A DNA stretch of 64,000 nt, from positions 29,139,504 through 29,203,503 of the forward strand of contig OZ037765.1 of NCBI GenBank assembly GCA_964035545.1, written 5' to 3'. Source of the DNA: Bugula neritina (Eukaryota > Animalia > Bryozoa). Positions within the stretch are counted from its first letter, which is position 1. Each line of letters opens with the position of its first letter. This document shows, piece by piece, positions 7,701-58,080 of the stretch. The translations under genes were made by a program, and so were the position numbers. The notes under the pieces are model-generated. The model saw only the letters and a program-made list of their open reading frames with translations, did no database searches and had not been told where the DNA came from.

Positions 7701-10589
7701 CCCTACTCAGTGCTCTTAGAAACCTAGCTATAGCCCGTATGTCTAACTCTTGATAACTCAGTCAGTGTTTGCCCTGTATAACATGATGAATAGCATCAAA
7801 TACCTTGTTCCTTGTTTTAAAATTTGAGAAATAATATTTATGTTATCATCTGTTTTATTTTTTGTTACTTTAGCAGGCTATCTTCAAATGAGAGCCCAGC
7901 AAGAAAGTTTTGAAGCATGTTTTTGTTGTTTGTATTTGCTGTAATTGAACTGCTGTTAAATTATGATAGTTATATTGAATACTCTCCTTTCCAGCTAGCA
8001 ACAAGCAGCAACTGCTGGAACAAGGTATACTGAAGCATCTGCTGCCCTACATAGACTGTGAGAATAGTATAGTGACCAGCAAACTAGTCGGGGCTATTCG
8101 ACTTCTTATCGACGGCCGTCGTAAGTTGTAAAATGTTAAATATTTAAGCAACTATAAATTAGGAGTTATCTGTCTATTTCTAATTCTTTAACTTCTTTGC
8201 TAATTGCTTTCATTTGAAGTATAACTAGACTGTTTAGATTTTTATTGTCTTGTTTATTGAACATGCTTCGCGTATGTTTACAATAATGTTTATAATCTAG
8301 CTATATATATATTATCACAATAAACAGCAGTTATGTGAAAAAGGCAGGGCAGGCCAAAGTTTTATTAAGTGCATAAATTTTATACTGAAAAAATCTTTTA
8401 ATTCATCAAAATTATGTTTCAGTACAGCAAGAGATGGATGGAAAAAATTGATTTTGAGTCTTATACATTTTTCTTTAGCTTTTTGTAAAATGATTTTAGT
8501 AGTTATAATATGGTTATAATATGCCATTAAACCCCTGCGGTGTCTTGTAGTAGAATTGTGTGCCAAATAGAAAATCTGTTGGTTGCTGAAATGCTGCGAA
8601 TAGTCAGAAAATGAAGAATGTATATATTTAATCAAAAGTCATTGAAATAAAGAGAAAAAATATTTTCGGAACTGTGTATATACAGTTTATATAAGAAAGT
8701 AGCTTAGGCCCTACATATAAATAATATTGTTATGGAGGTATATTCGGTTGTCATTATTGGTTGTAATTAATATAATATGAACAATTACAGCATTATTGGC
8801 GCAATAAAATTAGCAAATGAATTCCAGCCTCCCTCCAACCAACCTTGCTTTGTGCCTTGCATTAGGCCTTAACATCAAAGTATTAGAATTTATATTACTT
8901 TGCAATTTAATATACACAATATGTTGTATGTATTAACATACAGTAATTCATAGGGGGGGTTGTCTGATCATATTGATACTGATTTTAGCTGTGGAGGCAA
9001 GTTATGTTGGTGAGATGGAGATAGTGATAGAGAAATTGGTATTCCATGGTGACAATGAAGCTAACATGCTGTTGAAAGGTAACACCATCCAAATGAAACT
9101 TTTGAGACAAAATGATATTAATAAACTGTGAAGAGAAATTCTAGTAAACGTTATTCTGTCATACTGTACCATGTTTTAAGTATGTTAAAAATTGATTTAT
9201 AGTTTAGCTGACTTCATCACAAGTGATGACCCAAATTCAAAGAAATAGGTAAAAGGTCAGACTATGACACAATAACACTGTGACTGACTGAGAAACTTTA
9301 TACTGTCCAAATAACTGGTATAGTTATTTGACCGTTTGGTGCTAAGTTTTAGACAGAGTTTTTTGAAATGACTTGTATTGAGGGACTCTTGGCGAGTCCC
9401 CCCTCTAGAATTGTAGAGTGGTCACTTCACTGCTTGTAGGAGAAGCTACCAGATGTTTAGCCTGGATAATAAAGAACAGCAGGCAGAAGAAGGTGCTGCA
9501 GAATATCATTAAACACAATGCATTCAGACACCTGGTGTTCCTTGTCAACTCAGAACATGTCATCATGCAAAATGAAGGACTGATTGGCATAGTGCTGTTA
9601 GTCACTACATTACCAGGTGATATGTTGTTCTAGTAGTGATGATAAAACATACTTGAGTTAGTACTTTTAGGAGTTTACTTCTCTTGAACACACGAAGTCT
9701 TGAAGTATGAAAGAAAAACAAATATCAGATGTCTTGCTTAAATCCTGTCTGCTTTAAGATTTTATGTGTTGAGGGAAGGCATCTACTCCAACCACTAATT
9801 TATGTATTATAATTATTATGATTTGTGGTAGCTTATTAATCGCTAATAGCTGTATTTCTCACTCAAGTCTACACTGTAATACTTGAACCAAATTTTAGGA
9901 GCTGATGACTCCACAATTTTACTACCTCTACTCACAGTTTTAGTCAATTGCCGTCTATTGCCTGTAATTTTATTTTATATTACTGTATTACAGCATATAA
10001 TCTGTATTATGATATACCAGTGGCATATTACATATATATTACTGTATTACAACGTATATGTATTGTGACATACTAAAAACTTTCGTATAAATTGATTTGT
10101 AGAAGAAACGAGAAAAGCATCATTAGAGCATAAATTGCCCCAAGTTCTTACAGATTTACTAAATAAAGAAGAACCACCCGCTAAAGAAACTCTTCTCAAC
10201 ACACTAACATTGCTTATGGAACTCATCAACATTGGTATGCATTGCATTCTTACAGCTTACTGTTTTATCTCTCTGATTAGTGTATCCTGCTGTCAGCAGC
10301 ATTACTCAATCCACCGATTCCTTCTCTTCTCTATATCTTCGTTATTACAAAACTGTAACTGTTAGTTGCGTCAACTATAAACGAAACATAAGGCGTTCAG
10401 CCTTGTTGGTGAATAAATATTTTACCTGCAGACTATTCGTATTTACTTGCAGGTATGCTAGATGAACTGGTAGAAAGCAATGCAGAAGCAGCTCTGGTCA
10501 GTTTAGGTAATAAGATAGTAGCGGAGCAAGACCAAGGGGAGAAAATTACTGAACTTATAAATGCTGTTAAAAGCTCATTGCATTTATGA
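1781..10589 (+). CDS. RAP1GDS1: Rap1 GTPase-GDP dissociation stimulator 1 (SmgGDS), ARM-repeat protein, multi-exon
   Basis: Phase-compatible GT-AG exons include 1781-1868, 2158-2307 (AAQLLAELAKA), 2481-2606 (QVIRVLGNLCYE), 3098-3241, ~4537-4680 (LASELIVLVLTG), 5211-5342 (AAFALGNFARD), 7590-7736 (HALLSALRNLAI), ~9440-9616 (GEATRCLAWIIK..LVNSEHVIMQNEGL) and a last exon ending TGA at 10589. These motifs match SmgGDS as recalled. Confidence 0.88.
5404..7586. repeat. 16-bp minisatellite (TGTGYTGTATGTATAY)n, about 136 copies, filling a RAP1GDS1 intron
   Basis: Unit read directly; the 16-aa periodicity in all three + frames equals 3x16 nt; lies between donor 5343 and acceptor 7589. Confidence 0.97.
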
Positions 10590-16996: not shown

Positions 16997-19900
16997 CTAT
17001 TTCTTCCTCAGTGATTCTGAAGGAGACTTCTTAGTTTTAAGAAAAGTTAAACTTTTCATTTTATTTCTCCAGGTGCCCGTCATAGTGTCACCTAACTGGT
17101 GCATGTCATTGCTGCTGCTGCTGCTGTTCATAGATCGAACTGTACCGCTAGTAGTTATGTCTATAGTAGGTTTAGAAGTGGGTGCCATCGGAGTGACGAG
17201 TGTTAGCTCAACACTGCTTCCTTCACTCATTATTAAAGCCTTTATATCCTTTAATTTCTTACATTTGACGTTCACTCCATCAACGGCCACTAGAATGTCA
17301 TCCACCTTCATCCCTTGACCCTGTTACAACACAAAATTTCATTTATATATACCCTAGAAGAGAAAACAAATCCAACTTTTCTACAAAAAATGATATCTAC
17401 TGGACTAAGTTGCATTGCAGATATACATACAGCGCTGTGAAAGTGCAACATGCAGTATGGATGCAAAGACTACAAAAATAATGAGTATTTGTTAGTAGGT
17501 AAGAAACTTAGAAATAAAGAAATTTAGCTGTAAACAGGGCTGATGCTAACCACCTTTGAAAGTTGACAAACAAACTACTACTTGGCAAGAAATATTATTA
17601 GATGACATCCTGGTTAATCTTTGTGACCTGCAACAGCCTGAATCTATCCAGCAAGAAAATGCATGTTTGTACATATTATTTCTTAGTGCGCAGAAAAGTG
17701 TGTAGCTACGTGAAATTATGAGGGTGAACTAGCAGCGCTACTATATCTACCACCACAGAAGCTTAGTAATATATACCGTGGAGTCTAGGATGGCATTTGT
17801 CTGTCACAGAAAATAACAACATATAAAACCTTTAAAACATCTAGTAGAAAACATTTCTATGTAGCTGATAAGATTGTGACAATAACAACCATTGCAAATT
17901 ATAGCTTTTTATCAGTTCATTTTAGTTAATTTTTACACATCAGCAAATTATGACCAAAAATTGAAGTTAGCTCAAAATTTATGAAACTTTACTATATAAA
18001 GTAGTTTTATGTGTCGATTCTAACTATGCATAGCAAACAAAGGCTGAGAGGGGGTCCTGCAACGTCATTGTCATATGAGTGAAGTATATCTATATGGACC
18101 GTGATGAAAAAACCATCATGTTCTATATATACAAATTTACTAAAACATCAAGCAAACCATAGAAAATCAAGCAAAATTAAAAAAAAAACCTTGACTATTA
18201 CTCGTAAACTAGAGATAGCGAGTGTGTACTAAATTAGCGAGTGTGTACTAAATTAAGTAAAATCATCCATTAACTATCACAAGTCTAAATGTAGGCTAGA
18301 ATGGTGAGCATATAACCAGAAATTTGACAGGATGTAGTAGCTGTGCAGAAGCGAGTGCAATACCTGGGCAGAGCTATGTTCTTCAACCTCAATCACCACA
18401 CTTGGTACGTCACCTTTAATCGTGAACCCAAACCCATTCTTCTCATCTTTAGTGAGCTTCACAGTGCGAGGAGATGTCCATTCATGTTGAGCAGAGAACA
18501 CCGATATTGGGCCCTAAAACCAAGACAGATTTTGCTTTATGATCAACACATATCTATATATTTCATTAGAAGTAAATAAATGAAAAATACTTTTTGTTTA
18601 TCTAATTAAATAAGTTAACCTTATATTTCAGACACCACTGCATTCATCTCCACCTCTGAAGATGGATATAGTAATATTTGAAAAATCAGGTTACTAGCCC
18701 TGTAAGCCTATATTTAACCTACATGTTTACATTTATATTAATACTGCATTTAGACTAATGTGGTGCTCTACGGGTTTAATGCAAAATATTTTTATTTATA
18801 TGTAGTGATGATTGCAGTTATAGATAATGATTAAACGTAGATATGTTGTAGAAGTTGTATTCTCCTGTCTTCTAATGTAGCATCAACAACTCCAAATATT
18901 TACCACATCAGAAATCATTCCTCTATGCAGACGGCAACTGTCTAGACAATTATGCTTACCAAATCAGCAAAGAAGTCTTCAACTTTAAACTTTGAGAAGT
19001 CCGAAACCGTTATTTGAACAAGCTGCGTCGATTTGGGTACTATTGGCGTCGCTGACACAAAGATGTCTTCGAAATCTCGTTCATCGCTGACTTTATCCAG
19101 CAGCATCTGTGCACTGTTATAAAGCAATAATAGTTAGTGGATTGAATTTAGACAAAACTGTGAACTAACTGAGGGAACTGGATTATACCACAATATTGTT
19201 GAGATAAAAAATAAATCAATGACTATGAGACGAGGGATAATCTAACACAACTGCATGCAACATTTTCAAATATAACACTTGCAATGGCAAGAAGGTTCAC
19301 AATTTTCATTTTTTTGTATATTCTCCAACAAAATATTTCACAAATTATAAATTTTCATATTGTACGTTGAAGACAACAAAGGTCCACACAGTAACTTACT
19401 TTTCCTGAGCTGTATGTAGCACGTTGAGAAAAACGTCATCATTTGACCTGAGCATACGACAGAAGCTGTAGTCTTTCTCTGCCGTTTCGTTGAGAGAGAT
19501 GACATGATTGAGGTGTGACCTGCAGTACAAACGCTGTCTGGCCTTGTCTTCTGTGTATTGTATGTGCTTGCTGGACTTGGCATCTCTCTTGGTCACCTTC
19601 TCTAACATCTCAACAATCTCATTGAATGAAGGCAGCAACTCTGCATATAACACAAGTATTCGATGAACAAAGCTTATAAAAACAGTCCATCCAACAGCTC
19701 AAATAGTAATTCTATTGATATATAAAACAATAATTATCACACTGAGAAAGTTTCACAACATATAATTATATGGAACTTCAGTAGTGTATCAAAATAAAAT
19801 TACCGGCATTTATTCTAAGCTTGAATAAAGCAAATACAATTTCAATTCAGTATAAAACATGCATAGTCCAAGTGTGTTTCATTGATATACACAGCATCAC

Positions 19901-22900
19901 ATCTAGACATACAAACACTTGAGTTTATAAGTGATTGGTAAAATAATATGAGAAACACAGGCTAGTATCAACACATAATTTACTACTTTTTGCTTTGATC
20001 CACTAAATACATGATTGAACAAAAGAAGACAATAACTAAATTACAGAATTCAAATTTCAAGAGTAATGGCCAGTTCAGACTGTTGCTGAAATAAATTTAG
20101 AAAAAAGATATAATTTAAAAAGTACTAGAAAGTTGTTCAATAGCTGCAGTGTGAATAGGGCATAAGGCTCACCTTTACTAGTTAGAAGAGCTGAGGCCAA
20201 GTAGTAGTGCGCCATAGCGAGATAGTGATTGCACTTCATGATAGTTATAGTGAGCCAAGATGCGGGGACGTCATTCCGGACAGACTTACTGGAGACTGCG
20301 TTGTGCGTCTCCTCGTACATGCTGGCAACCATAGCAGCTTCTTGCGAGAATACAACACAATCCGAAAACTTTGTTGACGGTCCCAAGTTTAGAATCATTC
20401 TCTCATAGACGCATTCCTGGGCTTGTGACTGCAGATACACAATCATATGCACAGATAACATCTTACTGATAACAAAGGCAGCCACCATCCACTCATTGAA
20501 TTGACGGAAGTAGGCGCAGCTAAATAGGTGCACGATTGTGAAATCATCTTTTTGTCATGTGCATTAGAACCACAAAGCAAAATATTTTAGTTGTATATAC
20601 ATGATGTAATAGCCTTTTATTACTTATAAAATACATTTTAGGGCTAGTTAAATTACCTATAATATAGAAATTTGTATACTCCTAGGAAGTATTCTTGGGT
20701 CTCGAAAACAAGTTGAATTATTCAACTAGATCACTAGACAACTATTATATTATCTAATGGCTAATCATTTTAGGTTGTCACAAATCCATAGCCACATTTT
20801 TCTGAAGTGAGTCAATTAAAAGGCTAAAAGTGCAATTATTACTAAAAGCAAGATAATAGCTAAAGTTAAACTTTGATGTTTAAATTTCTGTGATTTAGAT
20901 TTAATTTATTTTTAGAAAATAATTACAAAACATGAATTTGCACGAGGTTTTATTCAAATAGCCTAACTCTAATTGACATCAAAGGCAAGTTAGACCTGTG
21001 ACGTGTGTTAACCCTAATGTAACAAATGATCCTAGGCTATAACTGAATACTAGGGCAATGCTTGTATTTTGTAATGCAAATATTAGGATGAAATACAGAT
21101 CAAACACAGAAAACGCATTGTATAAAACTGATAACAGATACAAAAAATATAAATGTATATTTAGCCATTTATAGTAAAAACAGGAAAACATATCTTATGC
21201 ACATGTTGACAAATAGGAAGATTATCTATGTTTGATTGATTGAAAGCATACAATTTTATTGGAGATGTGATTATTTTACATGTATGCATGTCTATTATAT
21301 CGTAGTATATCGATTACTACACTAGATATATTCATTATTAAAAACTGGAATGGAAAGTAAAATGTTAAGTGAGCAGTATGAACATTGAATAATAAAACAC
21401 AAAACTTCAGCACACCTAATACAGTAGAATGTAGAGTACATACCAACATTAGCTGAATGAGCAGTGTCAATGTGTCTGTACTCATGTCTCTGCTAGGGGC
21501 GTGTGTAAACCTGTCCCGCAGATATTTAAGTACACCCGCAGATCTTTGGTAATAATCAATTGCTTTGTCTAGGCCAGACACTGAGCCTCGATCCTAAATA
21601 TAGTTACAAATATTATTACATATATTATATTCAGTGAGACAGGAGTACACAACTCTCAACATCACGAGGTATACATGATAATATATTAGATATGCGATGT
21701 CAAGACAAATTGGCAGAGTTTCAACATGACTAACAAAGCACACAGTGTAGGTGTGCACAGTAAAACTTCGTCTCACACTGCCATCACTGTTATCTCTGAT
21801 AGATACAAAACTGTACACTTGAGGCTGTTAACTGTTTCTATAGGCAGAAGATAAGGGGTAAATGGACCCCTGCTATGGCGTTGGACAGTAGAGATAAGAT
21901 CAGTTGAATATATTACAAGTCTGTATGGCTGTAATAAGTGGCTATAATAACTGCATGTTATGCAGTAAAACTCTTAGCTCAGCAAACTTGAAGTACTTGT
22001 TTAACAGACAAGTTACTCTTAATCTTGTCATAGCAATGGATAGAAAGAAGGGGGGGGGGTGTCACACTATGAAGTAAGCACAGTGGAGGCCAGGCTATGG
22101 AATGTTTCCATAGAAAAAGCTATAACAGCCATATTATATTAATTTATAAGTATAATGACACAATAGGATCCTTTATACGCACCTGAGCAGTACCCAGCTG
22201 TGAATATAAGGCACCAATGTTGAAGAGCACACTACCTTTCTCATAGCCCAGTGTTTTCTGAGTTATATGCACGCCAGTAAGAGAGTCGTACCTGGAGAAC
22301 ACAGGCTATGCATTATTATACAACACAGCAGTTGCCAGATTATATAATAGTTTATATAAGCAGGTAAAAATAATAAATCTTCCAGTCTTTACAATGACCG
22401 AAAATGTATCATTCCAAAGTATGAAAGCAGATAAATTGGCAAAAGTTAAAGTGACACAGTAGTCTATGACTACCAGCAATGCCAATTTTACGAAATAGAA
22501 TTAAACGTTATCGGATCCAATTCTGCCAATTTACAGCATAACTATTAGATGTTAGCAAACATACTACCAAACAGCTATGAGTCACTTCATATTTCTCTTA
22601 AACTGCACAGCATATTATACATTAAACTGTAGAGTATACAGAGACAGGCACACACATGGGTATTATACACTATCTATTACAAGATGTGCTATTGCAAAGG
22701 CTTCCCTATCAATATTATTATTCTACAATCAAATAGGGAAGGGATTTTGCGAGTTCAGGTTTTGTAGTGCATCATTCATAAAATGAAAGAGCGAAATTTC
22801 TATTAACATAAAGGTTGCTATTCTATCAAACATGTAATTCATATTGAATAAGCTGTTATTATAAAGAGCTGGACTAGCCACTAATAACCATGTCTTACTA

Positions 22901-43882: not shown

Positions 43883-46808
43883 TTATTTTTTCGATTTTTT
43901 ATTTCCTTTGCCTTTTTTCTTCTTGTTTTTCTGTTTAGTTTTAAGTTTGATAGAAGTCCTAACTTTATAAGCTCTCCACAAAGCCTGTATGATCACGACA
44001 GCATGCGTTTGACGCTGCCACAATCTGTTCTTCTCTTCAGCTTGCTGTCGCTCCTGCAGTTTCAACTTCATTATTTCTTTGTACTCGCTCTGCAATTTCA
44101 CAGAAGTAATTAGCTTAACACTAACACATTAGACTCTACCATAAATAGCTTAATTTGAAGTAGATATGTATATTTTCACATCTCAATGAGACATAAACTC
44201 AAAAATCAAATACTAGCAGGTATCATAACATACTGTGAACTTAAATGAATTTTGTATATCCTATATCATATTAGCAAATTTGACTATTTTACACAATTTG
44301 CGTACTTATTTCTATGGCACTAAATCACAATAGAACTGTATCTCAGCATGGTTCTTACATATAAGTATTGATTATCATAATTTCAGATTATAATTTGCAT
44401 GGAAAGATAACTTCTGCAACAATTATTTACAAAAATTTTCTTATAAGGCTATATGATTGCTTTTGGTAACAATGAGTGTGAGGCAACCATGTAAATGTGA
44501 CAGAGTAATATTACTAAGCTTGAATATAATTCAGATTTATTATTACATAGAAGACAACTGCTAAACATGTAGTAGGAGAAGCTCTAGAGTTACTAGTAGA
44601 TATACACTCTGTTTTACCTCCAGGGTGTTGAATCTCTGCTCCAGCTCAGTCAGCTGTGCTTTCTCTTCCTGGTATGCAGCATCAATTTCTTCATACTCTT
44701 TCTGCTTCTCAGTCATCTCCACATCAAACTTCTGAATCCAATTTTCTATCTCGCACTCAATTTTATACTTTTTCTGCAAAAGTGCAAGTGTGCCTGTGTG
44801 TGTGTGTTTGTGTGTGTGATATGTGTGCATATATGTGTACACGTGTGAGTGTGTCTGTGTGTGTCTAAACGTGAGTGGCATGTGTTTCGAACAACAAATA
44901 CAAACTCCAACTACAATGAAGCTCCACAATATTCAGCAAGAGCACTTGTTAGAGTTATTACTAAAACATCTATATAAGCTATCTCACCCTACAGTATTCA
45001 CGACCAACTCAAGTTATATTCTACAAAATCCTGTCTACCATTCTCAAAAGGCGCTCTTCTTCTCTGTGCTCAATCACATCATTATCCAGAATATAAGAAA
45101 GACTTTTCAGCTCGGTTTGCATTCTGTCCTTTCTAACTTGACTTGCTTTGTTATCAGCATGCTTTTGCTTGTCGGCTTCATTATTCACTCTTTTTATATC
45201 TTCATCAGTTGTCTTTTCCAACATTTGAAGATTCATCTGCAAATTATCACCAATGACTATGAAATAGTTCATTATGATAGGAATTGAATGCAAATTGTAA
45301 GTTTAAAACGATTTCATGGTAAAATACTCCATTAAAATTATTCATTGTTTTAATACAGATGACTCACTCATGTTACAACTTATTAAACAGTTTCAGCTTT
45401 TGCAACATTTCATTAGCCACCAAAAGACTGACATTGACAAAGATTATACTAATTTCTAGGTTTAATGACACTATCGCAACCAACATGAAAGTTTTTTCTT
45501 CAAAATGATGTTGTGCACTTGTTTAAATTTTCAAGATGTAATTGCTTCCCCTGTCAAGCACGCAGCCTCTTACACCATCATTTTCATTTGAAATTGCACC
45601 TTATTGCAAATTTTACACCTGCTTCACACGTAGGAGAAAAAGAACAAGAGCAGACAATTACCAATTTCAGAATGTTGAACAGGTAAACCTTATCAAAAGA
45701 AAACTTACTTGTAGATGATGAATGGTATCATTTCTTGCTTTAACTTCTTTATCTCGTTCTGCTATGCCTTTTTGCAACTGTGCTTCCAATTGGTCGATTT
45801 CACTTTGGTTTATCTTCTGTTGAGCAGCAATCTAAACAGGTTTAGTAGTTTGAGACCAACAGCTGATTATGAAGAAAATTCAGCACCCCCCCCCCCCCAC
45901 TATAATGCAGTTTGACTTTAAAAAGTGTCCTTTGTATTAGGTTAAACAAGTTCCGTCTCATCAGTGCAGTAGAAATAATGCATACAGTTACTCACCTGAG
46001 ACAGGTAAACCAGCTTATCATTTTGTTCAGTTGGGGGAACCAGTAATCGCTGCAAGATCAATTCTTTTAAATCAGTCAAGCAATGCATGAAAAAAGCTCC
46101 TTCCCGGGTCCTGCCTTGGCTGCACTCGGCTATCAATCTCACCATTGTCTCCTCCCGGCTTCTAAACTCTCTTAGAATGTTTCGCACACTGAACTCCAAG
46201 TCTATTTTAAGTTTATTAAGCTCAAGCACAGTCTGAGTGACACGAAGTTTAGAATAATCACTGTGAAAGTTTGAATCAACTACACTAGACCTTACACTGC
46301 CATAACCCGGCAATACCATTGTATCCAACTGATCCTTTACTCGATCTAGGATAAAGGGGTTCAGCAGACTTTCATCAACTCTGGATGACCGCCGAGTGTT
46401 GACAGATGAAGACACTGCTGAAGCTGCTTCACTTTGTATAGGTGACAAATCAAGATAAACCTGTTCTACAGAATGAAAGTGGCTCAAACGCTCAGCATGT
46501 GTTCGGAGAAGTTCTGCAAGATCCGGACCAAGTAGTGTCTCAAACTTCGTGAGGTCTTTCATAACATACCGCAAAATTATAATTAAACTGCACTTGAGTT
46601 TAGCTTCATCTAATACGCCTATGATTCTTTGTGCTTCTAGTGAGTGCAACTTTTTTTGACATGGCTCTAGAACCTTTAGTGGATTTAACTTTAGCTTGGG
46701 ATTAAACTTTTTGGCAGACTTGGCAGTTAACTTACTGAAAAAATCATTTTGATTATCCATAACCAAAAAGCTTTTATTTCTCTCAAGAGTGGGTAACTTC
46801 AAACTCAT
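43883..46808 (-). CDS. IQCD: Dynein regulatory complex protein 10 / IQ domain-containing D
   Basis: [41 protein letters not shown]-terminal IQ motif [12 protein letters not shown] and a Lys-rich tail; 5 exons. Confidence 0.85.
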
Positions 46809-47728
46809 TTTGACTTCGTAAACAAATCGTCGGTTAAGTTTGGTTCTCCTTCCTTTAATTAAGCAAACAGCAATGTGCTATTTAACAAACTTCCTTTTAA
46901 TATTAATCATTTGCACACTATCAAAATTATTGAATAGGCAAATTTGTTTTTTTTAATTTCCAATATTTTGACATGATGAAATACTTAATGAATTACATAA
47001 TGTAAACACAAAGTGTACTGTACTAGCATTCAAATAGTTATTGATAACAATCAGAATTGTAATACTATTCAACAACAAACGATAATATCTTTGAAATGAT
47101 ATGATATTCTAGTATTAAGTAAATTGAAACAACTGGCAACAACAATGCTTTAGAATAATATTATTGTTATTTCAAATTTATAACACAATATAAAATGTAA
47201 ATTTGTCTACATGTATATAGAAATTATTAAATAGATATAAATATGTATATACTTAAAAGAAATATCTTTATAATCTAACAGGACGAAATTACTTTTAGGC
47301 ACTTTTAGGTGCATAGAATAAACATCCACATATATCATAAATACTATAAAATGTAGCTCAATTTTAAATCCCTGAATGAAGCTTAGGCTACACAGGGTCT
47401 ATATTAACTATAAATATAAAATGAATATCAAAAACAATACATTTGTACTGATATAAAAATAAAAGTCATAGGGTAACCACAGAAAACACTGCTATCCCTA
47501 AGTAAACAATTATTGCCATATTCTGATCTAGCTGAATTCTCAATTTAACTGGTTCTAAAAGAACTATAATAAATACTGATTTTAATTCTGTATCAACAGA
47601 TTTGAGTCTTTTAGGTCACAATAATAGTGAAGGCTGAGCCACTTCCCTATCAGAATATTAGGTTCACAGACTACAGGTAGACTATGTATGATGAGTTAGC
47701 ATTGGAAGAGTTACCTGCGAACAGGTAG

Positions 47729-50700
47729 TTAGTTGTTTGAGAGTAGCAATTCGACAGCTTCAGCTAAGTTGTCAACATATCCATCAGGTGTTATTTCAGA
47801 ATGAGGCTCATCGCAGACGGCCCTGATGGAAAGAGCAACATTGCATAGTAGGAGTATGTAACTGCTTACAAGTTTCTATTGTTTTCATGCAATATTCTAT
47901 ATAAACTTTATTTTATAAGTTGGCTTGATTAGGAAGCTGCTAGCTAATTCAAATTGCGTGATTGGCTTGACAGTTTGTCTAGACAATGTAATGACTTATT
48001 TTATCTATTGATTTAAATTCTGCCTAGCTCTGGCCACACAATTTATTGAAAAAATTAAAAATATAATATATTTTTAATTTAATTTAATAGGTATATATTA
48101 TATGCCTATTGTACTGTCTGCACACAATATGATCACCTAACATTAATTCAACATTTGAAGAAATAAAACAAAAATCTGGTCATAGTATACCGTAACTATA
48201 AATGGCAAAATACAACTACACCCATAAACAGATATGAATAATTTATTACTTTTTAACTTTCAAGTGCATTCATTAAATAAAGCCTAATGCTTGTTTATAA
48301 ATGCAGGTATGTTTAAATTTACCTGTATTTGCCAGTCCTAACTTGTACCCCCTTCATACCGAGAGCCTGGGCACCCCCTACATCGCTGATAATATCATCT
48401 CCTATCATGACACACTACAGGAAAAACACACCAGAACCAGTAAAAATCAGCAACTTATATAATCAGATAAAAATTAAATTTTAAAAAATTTCTGATCCTT
48501 GAGCTTTGAAATTGTATAACAAATTAATATTAAAGGGGGAGGGAGAGAGATGGAGAGGGAAAGAGGGGGGGGAGCAGGAACGTAAAGGAGCAAGGAAAGA
48601 AAGATGGGAACTATAACACGGAGAATAAGTTTAGCATAACACCTACATCCTGTATGTTGACTCCAAGAAGCCGAACTGCTTGATCATAAAATAGTTTGTT
48701 TGGCTTCCCACAGACAATCATCTTGCAGTCACACGCGAACTAAAACATAATTTACAAATAGAAAAAGAAGCATAAAGATGTTCTAAAATTAAAAATATAT
48801 AATAATAATAATAATAATAAAACAGATGGGGGTTCAGAGTTAAAATCTTACCTCCAAAGCTTTAGCATAAGCACCAACATCTAATACTAGATCATTGCCT
48901 TCCTTGTAGTATTTCCTAAAAATAGCAATACTACCATATCATCATAAGTTATACACCAAACAAAGTTGTAGCTACTTTTCAAATCCTCAAAATCAGTAAA
49001 ACCTGATGAAACTACATTACTCCTGCTTGGCCAACCAAACCAGCAATGATTGCAATCTAATATTAACAGCTATGGCAAACAATAATAAGTATTTAGAGAG
49101 GTGACTGTTGAAGACAAATTCAACCTTAATTCTGCTGGAATATCTTTTATTCTGTTTCTGACCAACAATAAACAATCAAATCCAATTGTATTAATGATGA
49201 ATGAGCTTTTATCACTAATTTCTGTTTTCTCTATAATTAAGCAAAAAATAATCTTATAATTGCAACTTTTAGGTGAGCAATGTATTTTCATATTATTTGG
49301 CTTCTAAACTTAACAATGTTCAGTTTGCTATATTTCCGATATATTTAATGACATACGTAATGAAAATAACTACAAAAACCAATGGCTTGCACATTTTATT
49401 GTACCTATGTAAAAGTGTATTCAAATGAATAATTTTTCTAAAAGAAAGAAACTATTTTCATCGTATTATAGAAAACTCAATAAAAATATTTCTTAGAATA
49501 AATTTGCTGAGTAGATTGTTACATTGCTCCATAATATAGTTTGTAGCCTGTGAACTATTTCTTTACAACTCACCCTCCCCCCATAGAGTACAACTTCCTG
49601 TCCTTGGGACTCATACTAAGTAAAGTATTGAACGCAGCATTCATTGCAGAATACGTGAAATGGGTATTGCAATCCCCCATAACCACACAGTTTGGATTCT
49701 CAGTAGATATGGAAGCAAATTCAGGAAGTACATCTGTAAATGACACAGAAAGAGAAAATAAAAAGCAAGAAACAATTTTTGTATCTTTCTTACCAAACTG
49801 TTTAGTATCATATAAAAAAATATCCAAGAAAACACGCAACACAATAAGTAGTTTACCTGGTGCTTCAAGAAGTCTATTAAAGAGGTCTTGTTGAATTATT
49901 ACTAACAGGCTTGTAATGTATAAAAAGGTTAATAGGAAATCAATAACCTAATATAAATACATGAAGCACATTGACATGATCCAAGGGGTCACAATGTATT
50001 TGGTATACTTACACAAAACTCACTAACTCTGTGAGAACCCCTAATAGAAAAGGTTTTAAGCAGCTAAGGACTTGTTTTTATGTTGTGGCAAAGGAGTAAC
50101 TATGATTGAATGTCCTTCCTAACATCACCAATAGCTCTATTGGGAATCAAACCACTGACCCTGTGCTTACTAAGTCGGTGCTTTAACCCCAAACCACGGC
50201 TGCTCCATCACTCATACCATAAAATATCTCAACAGTAGGTGGGTTTCCAGTTTGAATGATTCTAGTAAGAAATGGGTGCTGGTTAAAGGTTTAAACTGAC
50301 ATTGAAGCTGCCTGCCATCATGTAAATTTTCACCTGGTAATAAATCAGGAAACTTTCACCTCACCTGGATGAACCAGTAGGTGTGGACGCAGATTCTCCT
50401 GCTTTAGTAGCTCAACCATTGCAGGAGCTGGGCAAACTATATCATCAGATGTTATATTAAATCCGTGCTTGGTAAGTTTTGCAGCGAAATTATCTCTTGT
50501 TTCTGTAGACTCATTCGAGCAGAGTTTAAAAGGAATATGGCTGGCTTTCAATCTAGAATTTTTGTTAATTTAAACAAAATACACTACACATTGAAATAGC
50601 AACTTAGATAAGACGGAAAAGTTAGCTATACTATACAGTAACTTTGCAAAATATGTAACGCTCAAATTATTAGCCCAAAGTAAATAGAATTTAAAGATTA

Positions 50701-50910
50701 CCATTAAAATAGTTATTTATGTCAGTAGACCTAATTATCAACTTTTAATTTTTAAAAGTTTTAATTAATTAATAATATTGCTGCAAATATTTTTTACCTT
50801 TGTATAGCATCAATAGAACCTTCAATCGCTGCACCACCAGTTGGGCCACTGTTGTACAAAACTCCAGTAACATCTAGCAGTACCCCTTTCACACCTTCAT
50901 ACCATGACAT
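47729..50910 (-). CDS. LHPP: Phospholysine phosphohistidine inorganic pyrophosphate phosphatase (HAD IIA), 7 coding exons
   Basis: MSWYEGVKGVLLDVTGVLYNSGPTGGAAIEGS, CSNES, LRPHLLVH, NPNCVVMGD, VCGKP, MIGDDIISDVGGAQALGMKGVQVRTGKY, PDGYVDNLAEAV. Confidence 0.9.
50030..50208 (-). mobile_element. tRNA-derived SINE-like copy in an LHPP intron
   Basis: The minus strand has an A-box-like GTGGTTTGGGGTTAAAGC and a B-box-like GGTTTGATTCCC, then TATTGGTGATGTTAGGAAGGACAT, which is shared with the copy at 50984. Confidence 0.55.
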
Positions 50911-50983
50911 GATTGGTTTGTTTTCAGTTCTAAAAAAATAGATTTTCATGCAAATATAATATTTTCGAACAATAAACCTAATT

Positions 50984-51200
50984 GAGTAGTCGTGGATTAG
51001 TGGCTAGAGCGATGACCTAGTGTGACTCAGGCCTGTGAGTCTAGACTCTAGAATATTGGTGATGTCAAGAAGAGCATAATATGATCATAATTGCTCCTGT
51101 GCTTTGCAAAAGCCCTTAAACCATGTCAGCATGTTAAAAGGCACAGTCGATAATCCACTTATAAACCCTTGTAACCAGAGGTTCTCACAAAAATGAGTGC
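50984..51200 (+). mobile_element. tRNA-derived SINE-like copy, same family as 50030-50208
   Basis: A-box-like GTGGATTAGTGGCTAGAGC; shared blocks TATTGGTGATGTCAAGAAGAGCAT, ATCATARTTRCTCCT and GGTTCTCACA. Confidence 0.5.
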
Positions 51201-51296
51201 TCTAAACTAACATGAAACAGAATAAACCCAATTGAATCAAGTAACTTCCAATTGACTTGTGAGTTTTAAAAGCAAATATGTTGAGTATAGATATGG

Positions 51297-51649
51297 TGTA
51301 GTGAGTCATGCAAAGTACAAATACGGGAATCGCCCTCTCTCCGTTCTGGGAATACTAAGGCCCTTATGTAGCAACCAATTAGCAGCACCGGAAGATATGC
51401 TTCCGACTTACGTGACACTTCCCGGGCTATTGACAATTGATCACGTTGTTGTAAGCGGAGGCTTGAAGTAGAAACATGTGTTAGTAGTTGACTGATGTAT
51501 AGGATAATTTGATGTAATGTTTGCTTTGTGTTTTATTGTGGATAATAAATATAATTACTCGACAGCTACCCTAGTAATTGCTAGTAGAATAGCCAACTAA
51601 GTATAGGCAAGTAGATAACTCACGCACAGTAATTGCACAAATTACTACA
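51297..51649 (+). repeat. 5' LTR (353 bp)
   Basis: TGTAGT..ACTACA terminal inverted repeat; AATAAA at 51544-51549; matches 56309-56661 except at 2 positions. Confidence 0.97.
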
Positions 51650-51650
51650 G

Positions 51651-51668
51651 TGGTAGCAGCGGTGGGAT
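51651..51668 (+). promoter_or_regulatory. Primer binding site, probably tRNA-Leu
   Basis: TGGTAGCAGCGGTGGGAT begins 1 nt after the LTR; 17/18 match to the complement of the metazoan tRNA-Leu(AAG/TAG) 3' end as recalled (TGGTGGCAGCGGTGGGAT). Confidence 0.75.
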
Positions 51669-51684
51669 CTTGCGTATAGCAGTC

Positions 51685-52632
51685 ATGGCAGAAGACGGCA
51701 CGGAGCTACCCATTCCACTGAACGAAGGTGAGAGAGATAATGTTGATATACCTGTGGAACCAGTAGTGTTGGAAGAAGTGAGAATTCCTAGAGAGCCTGG
51801 TGAAGACAGATACCGGCTGAAGGCGCCCACCTTCACAGGCGAAGAGGCAGTAGAGCAGTTTATCCAAGAATTCCAAGATGTGATGGAAGTTGCACAGTGG
51901 CCACCAAGGGTGGCGTTGCTCAAGCTCAGGATGGCGCTGACGGACAAGGCTAAGCCGTACGGAGCGGGACCTGACATAGACGGAATCTTTGCTTCTCTGC
52001 GGGCCCGTTTTGGCATCTCCCCCATAGATGCACGGGCCCGTCTACAAAGGCTGCGGCGTGATCCTCACACGTCGCTACAGGAGCACGCTGCCACGGTGCA
52101 CCCACTAGCGCAGATCGCGTTCCGCGATCTGCCTCCAGTACACCGTGAGAGATATACTTATGATGCCTTCGTGCAGTCCATCAACGACTTGGGGCTCCAC
52201 CATCAATTCCAAGCGAGGGGAGTCACCACGGTCGAAGATGCACTTGCGGTGGGAGAAGCCTACCTCATGGCGACTCATATGCACCGCAATCGCGTGGCCT
52301 CCCGCCAGGTGGCCACGGAGCACACTACTGCTCATACTGAACCAAATGCGGAACCCTCCGCGGTGGCTAATGTGAACCACATGTCACTAGCATCAAAAGT
52401 CGCACAGATGACTGACATGCTAGATAAACTGATCGCCGCATTAGCTCCCCCAAGCCAGGTAGATACCGCCCGTGAGCCTTGCGGGCCGCAGGTACAATCA
52501 CCAGGCATGGGGCATAACTTCTGCTGGGGATGCGGAAGGCCAGGACATTTCCAAAAGAACTGCCCTCAACTCCAACAAGGGTTAAACTACCACGGCCCGC
52601 AGATGTTCCCACCTCCTGCGGGCCGTCTGTAA
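51685..52632 (+). CDS. gag: Retrotransposon Gag (315 aa) with CCHC zinc knuckle
   Basis: First ATG after the PBS; capsid-like start KAPTFTGEEAVEQFIQEF..W; knuckle CWGCGRPGHFQKNC. Confidence 0.9.
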   Translation: MAEDGTELPIPLNEGERDNVDIPVEPVVLEEVRIPREPGEDRYRLKAPTFTGEEAVEQFIQEFQDVMEVAQWPPRVALLKLRMALTDKAKPYGAGPDIDGIFASLRARFGISPIDARARLQRLRRDPHTSLQEHAATVHPLAQIAFRDLPPVHRERYTYDAFVQSINDLGLHHQFQARGVTTVEDALAVGEAYLMATHMHRNRVASRQVATEHTTAHTEPNAEPSAVANVNHMSLASKVAQMTDMLDKLIAALAPPSQVDTAREPCGPQVQSPGMGHNFCWGCGRPGHFQKNCPQLQQGLNYHGPQMFPPPAGRL

Positions 52633-52646
52633 ATCACCCAGGGAGG
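52581..52646 (+). promoter_or_regulatory. -1 programmed ribosomal frameshift signal (G_TTA_AAC plus stem-loop/pseudoknot)
   Basis: Heptamer in gag phase at 52581-52587; perfect 11-bp stem 52592-52602/52616-52626; the pol frame is -1 relative to gag. Confidence 0.75.
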
Positions 52647-52721
52647 ACCGCGCGTCTGCCGCCCCGCTGGGCGCCGCGCGGAGATGCTGTGAAGTGGCGA
52701 CCCCCGCGGCAAGTAGGATGA

Positions 52722-54729
52722 AGCCACTCGCCGCCTGGGTCCTCTACGCCACTCCAACACCAACACGGATCCGGCAGACGGTTGATCTCAGAGCCTGCGA
52801 GGGAAACGGTACAGGCGCCGCAAGGCGTACCGCCCCAACCTCGGCAGCTGGTCAATAGTCGTCGCCAACCGTGGACCCCTCGACCCACAGCGAGGGAGGT
52901 GCAACCACGGCACACACAGCTGCAGCCACACGGAAGTAGCTATTTCCTGCCAGGAAAGCTAGCCGGCAAGCCTGCCAACTTCCTCCTGGACTCAGGCTGC
53001 ACCACCAACCTCCTTAGCCGTCAATTCTTTGACACCCTCAGCGCTAAGGTCAAGGACGGGTTGGCACCGTATGAGGGGGATCATGGCACCCTGGCAGACG
53101 GGTCGTGCATTCCCTTCTACGGCATTATTGAGCTGACTGGTTACATCCGTAACCAGGCCATCCAAGAGACGTTTATCGTCGGGCAGCTCAACGAGGACGC
53201 TATCCTCGGGATGTCATTCTTACGACACGGATATCGCATCGATTTCAGTAAATCTGCGATGATCATGGGCGACAGGGAGCTCGCTTGTGTCGATAAGTTT
53301 GGTCGTCCTCTAGCGGGAGCAGTGCAGGTAGTACGGAGCTGTACGATACCGGGCCACTCCCGGGCTACCGTCCGCTGCAAAGTAGACGGTGGCCAAACCT
53401 CTAAGTTGGGAGTTGTCGAAAGTACGCACTCAAGAATCCAACTTGCCCATAGCTTTAGCCGGCTTACGGGACAAGGAGAGATTTCAGTGCAGTGCGTCAA
53501 CCCCTCCTCAGAGACAGTAGACCTACCACCCAGGTCCATGCTGGGCCGCTTCCATCCTGTCCAGGAGGAAGCCATTGGGCCGTCGTCGGGAGCTACGACG
53601 GAAGGTCCTCAGCAGAGCCCGTTTCAAGGGCGGAGGACCGTCCCAACCCACGCCTCCCATCTTCCAGGGACGCGTGGCTACACAGGCAACGGAAAGCGCC
53701 AGGCTATGGCTAGGTTGCCACATGGGTGCAGTGAGGCGCTCCGCCACACAGACCACGACGCCCGCCTAAATAGAGCAGGCCGTCGTGAGGTACCACGGGC
53801 GGCGAAGACCGCCCCTGCTCAGCAACTCCAACAGAGGGCTGACACGCCCCCGGAGGCTGTCCAGAGCCTCTGCGCCAAACCTGTATGGGCTGGTAACGTT
53901 AGGGAGCTGCCGAAGCTCCAGGAAAGCCTTCTTGGGGTGGTAGCCGACGTGTACCGAGCGAAACAGGAAGGGCGACGACCCAGTAGTAGACAACGGCGAC
54001 AGGGATGCGCCGAGTTACGGCTGTACTGTCAACGTTGGAACTCTCTGCGGGTCGGGCCAGATGGTCTGCTGACCATGACCTTGGCCGCCAACAGCAGACA
54101 ACCAGCCAGGAAAAGGATCGTCTGCCCAGCTGCCATCCGCCGGGAGTTGATACAAGACACCCACGAAAAGACTCACGGAGGAGTCCAAGAGGTAGTCACC
54201 AAGCTACAACTCCGGTGGTACTGGCCCAACATGGAGCGGGATATCCGGCGCAGAGTGAGACGGTGCGAAGTCTGCCAGACCAACAAGCATAGCCGTCTCC
54301 CTGGTGAAGCGGGGCGGCAGACGCATTGTGCGAGGAAGTCTTGGCAAACGGAGACTGTCGTCCTGGCCGGAAATACCTCCATGACACCTCAGGAAGACTT
54401 GGCGAGGCGAGAAAGGCCACTTCCGTCCTTGAAAGTGCGCCCACCGCCCCCAACGTCAAGCCTGCCATCACCACCACTTCCGGAACCAGAAACGGGTCCG
54501 GAAGTGCAAAAAACCCCCCGTGGGAGGGGCTCCGCAAGGAGATACCAACGTAGGAACAACCGTCACAAACAGGCTGGAAAAACCACCCGTGAGACATAAC
54601 AATCCACGGGTGAGCACACCGCCTCCCACAGTGACGACGCCTCCAGGACCACACACTAGGCAACCCCCAGCGTGTCTCAGAGACTGTGTACGTGACTGCG
54701 GTACAAGCGGCAGTAGGCGGAAAGTCTAG
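52722..54729 (+). pseudogene. pol: Internally deleted pol: aspartic protease, spacer domain, integrase HHCC finger and C-terminal tail
   Basis: FLLDSGCTTNL and AILGMSFL (protease); THEKTHGG..WYWPNMERDIRRRVRRCEVC (integrase Zn finger); no YxDD; tail motif RQPPACLRDC in a shifted frame; in-frame TGA at 52719-52721. Confidence 0.85.
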
Positions 54730-54949
54730 CGAGGTCTCGCATGGGAAAACAGGCAAAGAGACGTGGGAGTTGTGAACACCACGGAAATCTCAACTTTTGC
54801 CTCGGCGGAATCTCACACGAGATTCATCCGCTGGAAGTGAAAAGCCCTAGTCACGTTTCACAACCACGCTGCCCGGTCTTTTCCTACGTTGATGCAGTCA
54901 AGAGTAGACGTGCCACTAAACAGTAATCATTTACCGCTCTCATTCCAAA

Positions 54950-56007
54950 ATGTCTTACTATTCTGGATCGAAGGGTGAGTTAATTATGTTTTTGGTACGA
55001 TAACTAGACTGCATCAGTCAGCTTTAGCTACACTAGCTAGCGAGCTGGAGATTCGATAATGATAAACAGTGGTGGGAATACACGTCGACTTTGATTTTAA
55101 ATAATCTGCCATAGCGAGTGTGTTCTCCATCAACTATTCATTAGCCTGAATCTCACGAGTGTAACTGAACAGAGTACCTGTCAGGCTGTACACGCCGGCG
55201 GTACCTCAGTGTATAATCTTTAACACTGCTACTCTTTCAGATCACACTCGAGTGACCACCTCCCGGTCACGGGACCAGCCAACCCCTCTACCTATGGAAG
55301 AAGAACCTGTGATGGAGAATGGCTTACCCGTGGTGCTTCGTCGACGACACCGCTGGGTGTCACCCACGACGGAAAGGAGAATTGAGGAAGCCTGGGGACC
55401 TAGCGGACCCCACCGGACCTGCCAGGTCTGCTTCGAGGAGTGCCCGTCACACCGCTCCCTGCGTCTGCATGTAGACGCCCATTTTCTACTCCATTTCTGC
55501 CCATGCGGGTTCCACGATGTATACCCGTATCCTGTGATAGTCCACAAGTTGAGCTGCTTCGCCGGAGAGGGCCATATTGTTGATGAGGACAGTTTCCCCC
55601 AGTACCTAGACACCATCAAGCCAGTCATCAAGAAGGCTATCACCCTGGCCGCACTAGCGTCAGGGTTCCAAGTACTGCTGTTATCCGCCCGCCATAAGTC
55701 CCCTATGGTTCAGGGCCCGTCTCCTACCCCCGTCAACTCTAGCAACACCCCCGAATTAGAAGGAACAACAATACCCCCAATAACAGAGACTACTACAACC
55801 CCACCAAGGCCTAGCCGGCTGGCTAATGTAGAAGAGCGGCTTGTAAAACTACAAGCCGAGTTTACGCAACTGGCCCCTGACCTGCTGGATACGACAACAG
55901 GTCTATACCAGCTGAAGGACTCAGTGGGGCGACTGAAGAGGCGGCTACGTGCCCGACAGGCTCGACACAGAGCACGCTCGCTACAAGAGTCAGAGTCCAC
56001 CCAATGA
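54950..56007 (+). CDS. Spliced accessory gene of the LTR element (exons 54950-54974 and 55241-56007; 263 aa): C2H2 and C2HC zinc fingers, leucine heptad, Arg-rich tail
   Basis: CAAAATG start; donor G|GTGAGT at 54975; branch-like CTTTAAC at 55218-55224; acceptor CTCTTTCAG ending 55240; the phase-1 join is in frame with ORF 55252-56007. Confidence 0.75.
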
Positions 56008-56294
56008 GTATGCCTGGGGTAGGCACCTTTCGTTGAGCTGTATTTCGTCTGGAAAGTGACGAGTGCTCCGACATTGGCCCGCGTGCTGGTAAGCACCCTC
56101 TCTCTTTATAGCTGACTAGATGTGTGTGTTCGATCACCCTGTTTACTTCTGTATATAAATGTTGTCGTACTCAACTATTTCTCTTCTCCCTTTTTGTGGG
56201 TTTACTTATGTATGTTTTTCTTTTTGGATTATTGTATTGTTTTTCTTTATATGTGTTTTTTGTATTGTGTTATCAGAAAGTAGGGCTTTCTGCT

Positions 56295-56308
56295 GGGGGG
56301 GGGGGCGG
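56295..56308 (+). promoter_or_regulatory. Polypurine tract
   Basis: GGGGGGGGGGGCGG directly before the 3' LTR. Confidence 0.85.
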
Positions 56309-56661
56309 TGTAGTGAGTCATGCAAAGTACAAATACGGGAATCGCCCTCTCTCCGTTCTGGGAATACTAAGGCCCTTATGTAGCAACCAATTAGCAGCAC
56401 CGGAAGATATGCTTCCGACTCACGTGACACTTCCCGGGCTATTGACAATTGATCACGTTGTTGTAAGCGGAGGCTTGAAGTAGAAACATGTGTTAGTAGT
56501 TGACTGATGTATAGGATAATTTGATGTAATGTTTGCTTTGTGTTTTATTGTGGATAATAAATATAATTACTCGACAGCTACCCTAGTAATTGCTAGTAGA
56601 ATAGCCAACTAAGTATACGCAAGTAGATAACTCACGCACAGTAATTGCACAAATTACTACA
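56309..56661 (+). repeat. 3' LTR (353 bp)
   Basis: Direct repeat of 51297-51649. Confidence 0.97.
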
Positions 56662-58080
56662 ATATTTATACTAACTTTATTATTATTAAAATGTTAATAG
56701 TTATTATTTTTATTGTTGATTACAATATCTGTGATGATAATGGCCTCTATGACTAAAAAATATGTATGACAAATTTATTAAAAAATGAAAAGTCACAACT
56801 ATTTATTTTGATGAATATTTGAGCATAATTAAACAAGTGAATGAGTGCATGTATGGTCACTCATTTTAACTTTATGACAATAACAGTATATCCACAATAA
56901 TCATAATGACAACATTCAAACTTTGGATGCAGCTGAGGTTTGTTACTAGTAATATTAGTATTAGTACAGCAGAGCAAAATTACTGCACCTGTAGTAATTT
57001 AGTAACTAAAATACTAATTCACAATCACTATCAGTATCACTATTCACGAGTAGTATTACTATGAGTAGTGCTGATCAAGCATTGGTGATACTGATTTGTC
57101 TTACTCTTAACCCTTAGGCAACAACACTGTTACTGCAACTGACTGTTAGTGCTACACTTAGTGCCAGTGTCACACTGACAGTAACACTAACTGTGCATAT
57201 CAATTACACAGTAAATGACAACTATATTTCAACATCACAAACTCAAAAGAAAACGTGTTATACTCATACTGATTGTTTAAAGTTAAACTATAATTTAACT
57301 TAAATTTAAGAGTCAAGATGAAGAGGAAGTGAGATTTAAACTTAGTGAATCATAGAAATTGAAAAATATTTGTTGTTAGATACTTATACTTATATTGAAT
57401 TTGATATTGTATTTCAATCTGTATCTGACTGAAAAGCCAAAAGGTAAACCTAAGATGAAGATGTAGTTTGTTTCAAACCCTAGGGCCTAGGTATATCAAT
57501 GGGAATATGATTATCGCATTCATAATGATTATCAGTATCCTTATGATTGTGAATATCGATTTGAATTTGATTTATCAACCCATAATTAATATTATGATTA
57601 ACCATGTTAAACGCGAAACACTCAGTCACTCCCAACGGCAACTCGGGGTTTCCTAAACTTGTAGTTAGTAGTTACAGCAAATTTCAGACCATCATGATCA
57701 CCGATCATGATAAACGAATAACCTCATAAAGGTCACCACTCAGAGTCACTCTAAGTTCTAACTCTCAGTCTCAATCTTTGCTAAGCCAAACTGAAACTCA
57801 AAGGATAATCAATATCATAATCATAATGATAATCATAATGATAATGATAATGCCAATGGCAATGCAGAAGTTTAATAGCTTCAGTACAATAGGTTACGTG
57901 AATTTTGTACACTTAGGAGAAATAAATAATGTTATGTCTATGCAAATGAAAAAATCAGATAGCAATAGTCATACTCATTGCGATAGTACAATCCTATGGT
58001 GATGCTATCGCTTTAACTACCTCTGCAAAATTCTTGCACAACGATAGGTGTAGGAATAGTGCGCCTCTCCGAATGGTTAG

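Follow-up and report, generated by a model that had tools for sequence, protein, structure and literature searches.

A spliced zinc-finger and coiled-coil gene that occupies the env position of a young Ty3/Gypsy-type element of Bugula neritina, with a plausible regulatory role

The window analyzed here is a 64,000-nt stretch of the Bugula neritina genome (GenBank assembly GCA_964035545.1, contig OZ037765.1, positions 29,139,504 to 29,203,503, forward strand), and all coordinates are positions within it. A GC-rich island of 5.4 kb, set in AT-rich surrounding animal genome, holds an LTR retroelement. The host genes of the window that we noted are on the minus strand: exons at 17000 to 21593 that encode BRO1 and PDZ domains, presumably of a rhophilin-like gene; exons of a coiled-coil gene at 44564 to 46877 that have no significant Pfam match and that we take to be IQCD/DRC10-like; and a HAD-hydrolase gene at 50348 to 51003 (Pfam Hydrolase_6), which we assume to be LHPP-like. 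The element begins a few hundred bases upstream of the HAD-hydrolase gene, is divergent from it, and could affect its promoter. Positions 5262 to 7760 are a tandem array of ~150 copies of a 16-nt unit that yields spurious long ORFs. The parts of the element are as follows:

51297 to 51649, plus strand: 5′ LTR, 353 nt, ending in TG...CA, likely promoter for genomic and spliced RNA
51651 to 51668, plus strand: primer-binding site downstream of the 5′ LTR, called from sequence
51685 to 52632, plus strand: gag, 315 aa, intact, with one CCHC knuckle (zf-CCHC E value 9e-4, below the Pfam cut-off)
52722 to 54729, plus strand: pol remnant with protease and integrase H2C2 domain (Pfam Asp_protease_2 and Integrase_H2C2); the pol ORF is 52722 to 54599 and the tail is in another frame
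56295 to 56308, plus strand: polypurine tract upstream of the 3′ LTR, called from sequence
56309 to 56661, plus strand: 3′ LTR, 353 nt

The LTRs with TG...CA ends, the primer-binding site (presumably of the tRNA-Leu type), the polypurine tract, the CCHC gag, the aspartic protease, and the Gypsy-type integrase zinc domain are those of a Ty3/Gypsy element. A Pfam search of the element's pol gave no RVT, RNase H, or rve match, and the absence of reverse transcriptase, of RNase H, and of an integrase core suggests that the element is unable to move alone. The two LTRs differ at 2 of 353 sites, in agreement with the youth claimed for the element in an earlier reading of this DNA (the sequence-only reading below). 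The element is thus a young, non-autonomous Ty3/Gypsy-type LTR retrotransposon. Sequence searches found no relatives with full-length pol or longer gag, which is weak evidence. An empty insertion site, with a joint from 51292 to 56662, was seen in sequencing run X1, which makes it likely that the element inserted recently and is polymorphic. The target-site duplication is an imperfect 4 bp with two extra G residues on the left flank (51291 to 51296 and 56662 to 56665). The GG to the left of the 5′ LTR is identical to the final two bases of the polypurine tract, and the empty site in X1 has AT at this place; the GG may be a terminal dinucleotide of the cDNA that escaped removal. Two further candidates within the element were set aside: a suspected dUTPase-like segment after the protease had no Pfam or PDB sequence match, and a 61-codon ORF at 54741 to 54926, between the pol stop and the mini-exon described below, is more likely decayed pol tail than a second accessory gene.

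The accessory gene that is the subject of this work occupies the env slot, after pol and before the 3′ LTR (ORF3), and its parts are as follows:

51685 to 51727, plus strand: initial coding exon of the mRNA for the accessory protein (14 gag codons plus 1 nt), ending at donor D1, whose GT is at 51728
54950 to 54974, plus strand: 25-nt mini-exon starting with ATG 54950 and ending at donor D2
54975 to 55240, plus strand: 266-nt intron, strongly folding, candidate cis element; its acceptor is common to both donors
55241 to 56007, plus strand: last exon, 767 nt to the stop
55318 to 55701, plus strand: compact domain around two zinc fingers (C2H2 and CxC-type C2HC), with no Pfam family
55702 to 55812, plus strand: Pro/Thr linker, poorly conserved (32% identity among relatives)
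55813 to 55977, plus strand: predicted coiled coil running into an Arg-rich tail (80 to 82% identity among relatives)

The sequence-only reading had proposed a two-exon gene in which ATG 54950 and the mini-exon are joined across the intron (donor GTGAGT at 54975, acceptor AG ending at 55240) to the last exon, and all of these coordinates check, giving 263 aa in frame. The motifs that it described are likewise present: finger 1 (C-x2-C-x12-H-x3-H) at residues 60 to 80 and finger 2 (C-x-C-x12-H-x3-C) at residues 86 to 105 of the last-exon product, a heptad series (L,L,F,L,L,V,L) at residues 193 to 235, and an Arg-rich tail at residues 229 to 245 with 9 K/R and no D/E. Eight NES-like patterns match, several of them within the heptads. 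The protein has no signal peptide, no Pfam match, and no transmembrane segment (its highest Kyte-Doolittle mean over 19 residues is 1.55, and a value of 1.8 is reached by none of the 42 relatives checked), which upholds the earlier view that it is not an env protein.

What the sequence-only reading missed is a second donor, D1, located after gag codon 14. D1 and D2 have the same phase, and both can reach the acceptor at 55240. Evidence on splicing comes from contigs of seven of the 14 sequencing runs listed, of which X5, X6, X7, X9, X11, and X12 are likely RNA and X1 is probably DNA; the RNA nature of the runs is guessed, the contigs give no strand or start, and none of them is this copy. The kind of run X1 is unrecorded, and we regard it as DNA because it covers the flanks of the element and its contigs total 309 million letters. 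Five of the six likely-RNA runs (X5 and X7 from study P2, X6 and X9 from study P3, and X11 from study P4) contain, at depths of 41 to 444, a joint that leads from 51727 into the last exon; it is missing from X12 and from the X1 joints listed. The reported ends of this joint are 51727 and 55380, the intervening letters being unknown, a placement that we attribute to the contigs belonging to a sister subfamily that is mostly less than 90% alike. In an X12 contig, a loose end of 163 letters precedes 55380 and resembles window positions 55350 to 55379 by eye, and 163 is the sum of 139 exon letters and 24. In addition, in the relative P0016 the gag start runs in frame straight into the first residue of the last exon. 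Based on the X12 loose end and P0016, we infer a junction of 51727 to 55241 and a product of ~269 aa. We rejected 55380 as the true acceptor: an exon starting there would not be in frame in this copy, and exon-like letters continue upstream of it in the X12 contig. Splicing from the gag donor is very probably the main route to the protein, which would carry a 14-residue gag leader, a conclusion carried over to this copy from sister-subfamily data.

Use of D2 is seen in a different setting. One X1 contig (depth, 843; one side, 28 letters) lacks exactly 54975 to 55240, which is the only joint with GT..AG ends among the 14 X1 joints listed, beyond which there are 41 more, and the relative P0003 keeps the D2 donor at its start and reads across an intron of roughly equal length. 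The earlier claim that this intron is spliced is borne out by the X1 contig; the 54974/55241 junction stands in this one contig of a probable DNA run, and no D2 joint is among the RNA joints listed. D2 is thus used, likely on RNA that was then reverse transcribed. It could serve a start of its own at ATG 54950, end an internal exon, or make a 3′ splice in genomic RNA; an AG at 54923, which is a weak acceptor, would give a 51-nt in-frame internal exon ending at D2. The acceptor itself is conserved in the relatives described below: among 120 relatives there are 31 pattern matches, and in 29 of these the first exon residue is preceded by S or L, which a YAG acceptor demands; the two exceptions are P0016 and one spurious match. 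Among stored relatives, the gag start is present at the N terminus of one (P0016) and the mini-exon peptide at that of none. The U-rich 3′ untranslated region (56089 to 56277) has a donor-like site that matches the U1 consensus at 7 of 9 positions and a possible acceptor before the polypurine tract, with no joint seen.

The intron and its borders are predicted to be highly structured, with one hairpin in particular covering the mini-exon:

54890 to 55016, plus strand: predicted long hairpin burying ATG 54950 and D2 (pairing probability, 0.93 at both)

Folding of 54975 to 55260 gives a z score of −5.0, and 0 of 200 shuffles are as good; among 17 non-overlapping 286-nt segments the one with the intron is the best, and the next has −4.6. 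D2, ATG 54950, and the acceptor tract are paired in predicted stems with a probability of 0.85 to 0.93, against a regional value of 0.68 and a value of 0.64 at D1. However, the intron is not unique, since the internal region folds well overall (150-nt windows reach −5.5 in the pol tail). Other strong folds are at 54372 to 54671 in the pol tail (z score, −5.5) and at 52272 to 52421 in gag (z score, −4.6). When 16 relatives were mapped back by codon, definite changes were found at 80 of 787 paired sites versus 109 of 417 unpaired sites. There are four two-sided compensations, three in P0003 and one in P0131, and among distinct changed pairs, 19 are kept and 18 broken, which is near the 0.36 to 0.43 kept under a transition-biased null. 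Rfam has no match to the folded region at E ≤ 1. These values hint that the intron may be a conserved cis element, and we treat it as a candidate only. Several deletion joints in X1 end near 54765 to 54771, as though the sequence downstream were retained.

A search with the last exon found 132 relatives at E ≤ 0.001 among 1,851 candidates; the 120 listed are 49 to 90% identical to the query and come from JGI, ENA, and Logan contigs. Other copies tie the accessory ORF to gag (P0016) and to the pol tail (P0095), and this linkage indicates that it belongs to the element family, so that the earlier claim of a real, conserved, element-borne accessory gene stands. Identity to the query is 75 to 76% in the fingers, 80% in the coil, and 82% in the Arg tail, and only 32% in the linker, and the eight zinc ligands are kept in 83 of 87, 77 of 87, 79 of 93, 88 of 95, 92 of 95, 90 of 96, 97 of 99, and 113 of 119 aligned rows. 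This regional pattern fits selection on the protein, among relatives that were chosen by similarity. All motifs are present in only 29 of the 120 relatives as called, and the other calls are incomplete through truncation at contig ends, late start calls, or decay. The proposal that the gene was kept intact while pol decayed therefore holds in part: the residue pattern of the family favors it, but this copy is too young to display selection, its gag is intact as well, and the full set of motifs is limited to those 29. A search for DNA of the relatives gave no match in viral contigs or genome contigs, and the single locus from a metagenome contig search was a bacterial false positive.

In a search by profile, 1.84 billion representatives yielded 136 matches. 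Beyond fragments of the close family, these include a distant family that is 22 to 42% identical in the domain and likewise has a Pro-rich linker after the domain and a coil at the C terminus. All of the 89 rows aligned share the C-x-C pair; conservation of the remaining ligands is 90% or higher, apart from the last Cys (61 of 75). AlphaFold2 run on the 89-row alignment predicts a compact domain of 125 residues (pLDDT, 95; pTM, 0.88), in which a conserved flanking Trp/Thr helix and a V-D strand pack both fingers into one unit; an earlier fold from 50 close relatives had given the finger region a pLDDT of 62, and the diverse alignment raised the quality. The profile and structure searches of the protein proposed in the sequence-only reading returned weak tandem C2H2 matches only: the query has no Pfam match, C2H2 is matched weakly by 6 to 8 of the 89 rows, and finger 2 (C-x-C...H...C) departs from the classical C2H2 pattern (PF00096). 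The best PDB sequence matches are Krüppel-type factors, a group to which Kaiso, SALL4, HIC2, and CTCF belong (best profile E value, 9e-6), and the best structure matches are the DNA-binding C2H2 pairs of Kaiso (Z score, 4.1) and SALL4 (Z score, 3.8), which are weak and cover residues 24 to 82. A best Z score of 4.1 in a wide structure search is evidence neither for a match nor for novelty of the fold, and Foldseek against PDB and viral models returned nothing at E ≤ 0.001. Finger 1 and its spacing to finger 2 thus align with Krüppel-type fingers by profile and weakly by fold, whereas the second finger differs from that of Krüppel-type pairs in being shortened to C-x-C. The helix of finger 2 starts with Y-P-Y-P in this subfamily versus S-R-D in distant members, and Y-P-Y-P would be unlike the start of a base-reading helix.

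Of 30 relatives looked up, five have a taxon, and all five are bryozoan (two from Watersipora subatra and three from Bugula neritina); all of them fall outside the close family, and they are annotated bryozoan genes. Two of the Bugula neritina members have adjacent locus tags, and in some distant relatives (P0132, P0176, and P0203/P0254) the finger domain is duplicated. A quick tree was built from 93 rows, with P0108 omitted as too short; in it, the 13 close-family rows form one clade with a support of 99 on a long branch, and its sister is P0144, whose N terminus is like a pol tail, together with P0154. The tree gives no direction of transfer between host genes and elements.

An element that splices its LTR transcript must still export unspliced RNA. 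In HIV-1 this is the task of Rev, an Arg-rich nuclear protein translated from a spliced message, and of the RRE, a structured intronic element. Lentiviral Rev differs from the present protein in having no zinc-finger domain and a proven NES with CRM1 use, whereas here there are an Arg-rich tail, which is a candidate RNA-binding motif, and NES-like patterns. Published accounts supply further parallels in arrangement. In equine infectious anemia virus, Grev is made by a single splice that puts 18 N-terminal residues of Gag in front of a regulatory exon from the 3′ part (PMC9769392). The closest precedent is CERV, which is encoded by the Ty3/Gypsy element Cer1 of Caenorhabditis elegans and is required to export unspliced RNA; it is a 517-aa protein from 5 exons with H, M, and G domains and a C4-type loop, and reportedly has no homolog outside nematodes (PMC10309623). 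As described there, CERV is, like our gene, a non-env ORF that lies after pol and before the 3′ LTR, expressed from a spliced mRNA with a gag-frame start, and it has a leucine zipper, a cysteine-rich finger, and an essential arginine where the present protein has a coil, fingers, and an Arg tail (PMC10309623). Compared by description, the logic is alike, but our product is ~269 aa with only 14 gag residues, a C2H2/C2HC pair, and a C-terminal coil. The literature searched holds no Gypsy-encoded export protein besides CERV. Expression of ORF3 from spliced messages is stated as a general rule for LTR elements (PMC5408684), and the position in the env slot is also that of errantivirus env (PMC13524379) and of bdelloid ORF3s (PMC5408684), although here there is no signal peptide or transmembrane segment. 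The env-slot products named in the available portions of these two sources are fusion proteins, esterases, and exonucleases, and zinc-finger ORFs have no mention in the available portions of PMC13524379, PMC5408684, or PMC8220671. A spliced ORF in the env slot and a regulatory precedent in CERV are therefore already known, and no account of this gene or domain was found in the open-access literature searched.

A regulatory role for the accessory protein is plausible. The reading that we put first, tentatively and at somewhat below even confidence, is that the product is a Rev- or CERV-like nuclear factor that would free unspliced genomic RNA from splicing or nuclear retention. It is suggested by the near-invariant Arg tail that follows a coil, by the prolines with which the finger 2 helix begins, and by the structured intron. 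In this model, splicing of the LTR transcript would link D1, within gag, to the acceptor at 55240 and so yield the message for the accessory protein; predicted hairpins that bury the 3′ donor and the acceptor would make splicing inefficient and leave part of the RNA unspliced; and the structured intron, found only in unspliced RNA, would be a selective target. The protein might oligomerize through its coiled coil, bind the intron through its Arg tail and finger domain, and promote export in a feedback loop, a step that we hold with the same reserve. The present copy, which lacks reverse transcriptase, would presumably be moved in trans by an autonomous relative. Against the Rev- or CERV-like reading are the best structure and PDB profile matches, weak as they are, to DNA-binding C2H2 and Krüppel-type factors, the fact that the named relatives are annotated bryozoan genes, the strong folding elsewhere in the internal region, the near-equal numbers of kept and broken pairs in the intron, and the overlap of the NES-like patterns with the heptads.

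The derivation of the domain from C2H2 fingers makes a DNA-binding regulator of the LTR the main rival. Such an activator or autorepressor, Tas/Tax-like in role, would read DNA with its fingers and dimerize through the coil, and the Arg tail would serve as a basic region or NLS. The helix of finger 1 is still basic, the distant members combine typical S-R-D helices with an equal layout of domain, linker, and coil, and the named members are, again, annotated bryozoan genes. However, only two fingers are present and they are packed in a compact domain, the finger 2 helix of this subfamily starts with prolines, and the LTRs appear to vary between subfamilies while the protein tail is nearly invariant. 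We consider this alternative unlikely. An anti-silencing or chromatin factor, VANC-like in role, would bind element DNA or host silencing proteins and keep copies active; non-autonomous, still-mobile copies keep the gene, sister copies occur in likely-RNA runs of three studies, and the best structure match is, weakly, a methyl-CpG reader. The protein has no enzyme or reader domain and a Z score of 4.1 is within noise, so that we consider this role improbable.

The sequence-only reading had instead taken ATG 54950 as the main start, preceded by an Inr-like TCATTC at 54940 to 54945, which amounts to an internal promoter near 54940 and a two-exon mRNA as the main source of protein. The precise loss of the D2 intron from the X1 contig, the retention of D2 in P0003, and the in-frame ATG speak for this route, but the evidence runs mostly the other way: the RNA joints start at 51727 and none listed uses 54974, the mini-exon peptide stands at the start of no stored relative, the window has 40 occurrences of TCATTC over both strands and this occurrence lies within the predicted hairpin, and the ATG and D2 are themselves predicted to be paired. 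Moreover, an intron-less DNA copy would imply splicing of packaged, LTR-started RNA, and D2 could instead end the 51-nt exon from AG 54923. The TCATTC thus loses its significance, and we judge an internal start as the main source to be quite improbable. Least probable of all is a particle-associated helper (in the assembly of Gag, entry into the nucleus, or the targeting of integration) or a host gene that was captured and does nothing for the element, since, despite the N terminus in common with Gag and the host-annotated genes in the domain family, just 14 residues are shared and the strong region-specific conservation over 120 relatives and the long-branch clade of its own argue against recent or neutral capture.

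Whatever the function proves to be, a domain family that has no Pfam entry and is common to mobile elements and annotated bryozoan genes is now defined. Returning to the Rev- or CERV-like reading, we put forward in its widest form, as an unlikely proposal, that a bryozoan Gypsy lineage may have built its own Rev/RRE system from a host tandem zinc-finger domain, independently of lentiviral Rev and nematode CERV, with a gag-spliced protein that would recognize a conserved structured intron and control two competing donors, and that the undescribed 125-residue domain family may fill the env slot in Gypsy elements of other marine invertebrates. The means by which intron-containing genomic RNA is exported are settled for few envelope-less retrotransposons. 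If the proposal is true, a second, unrelated compact protein with a candidate RNA element would mean that the regulation typical of "complex retroviruses" arose repeatedly.
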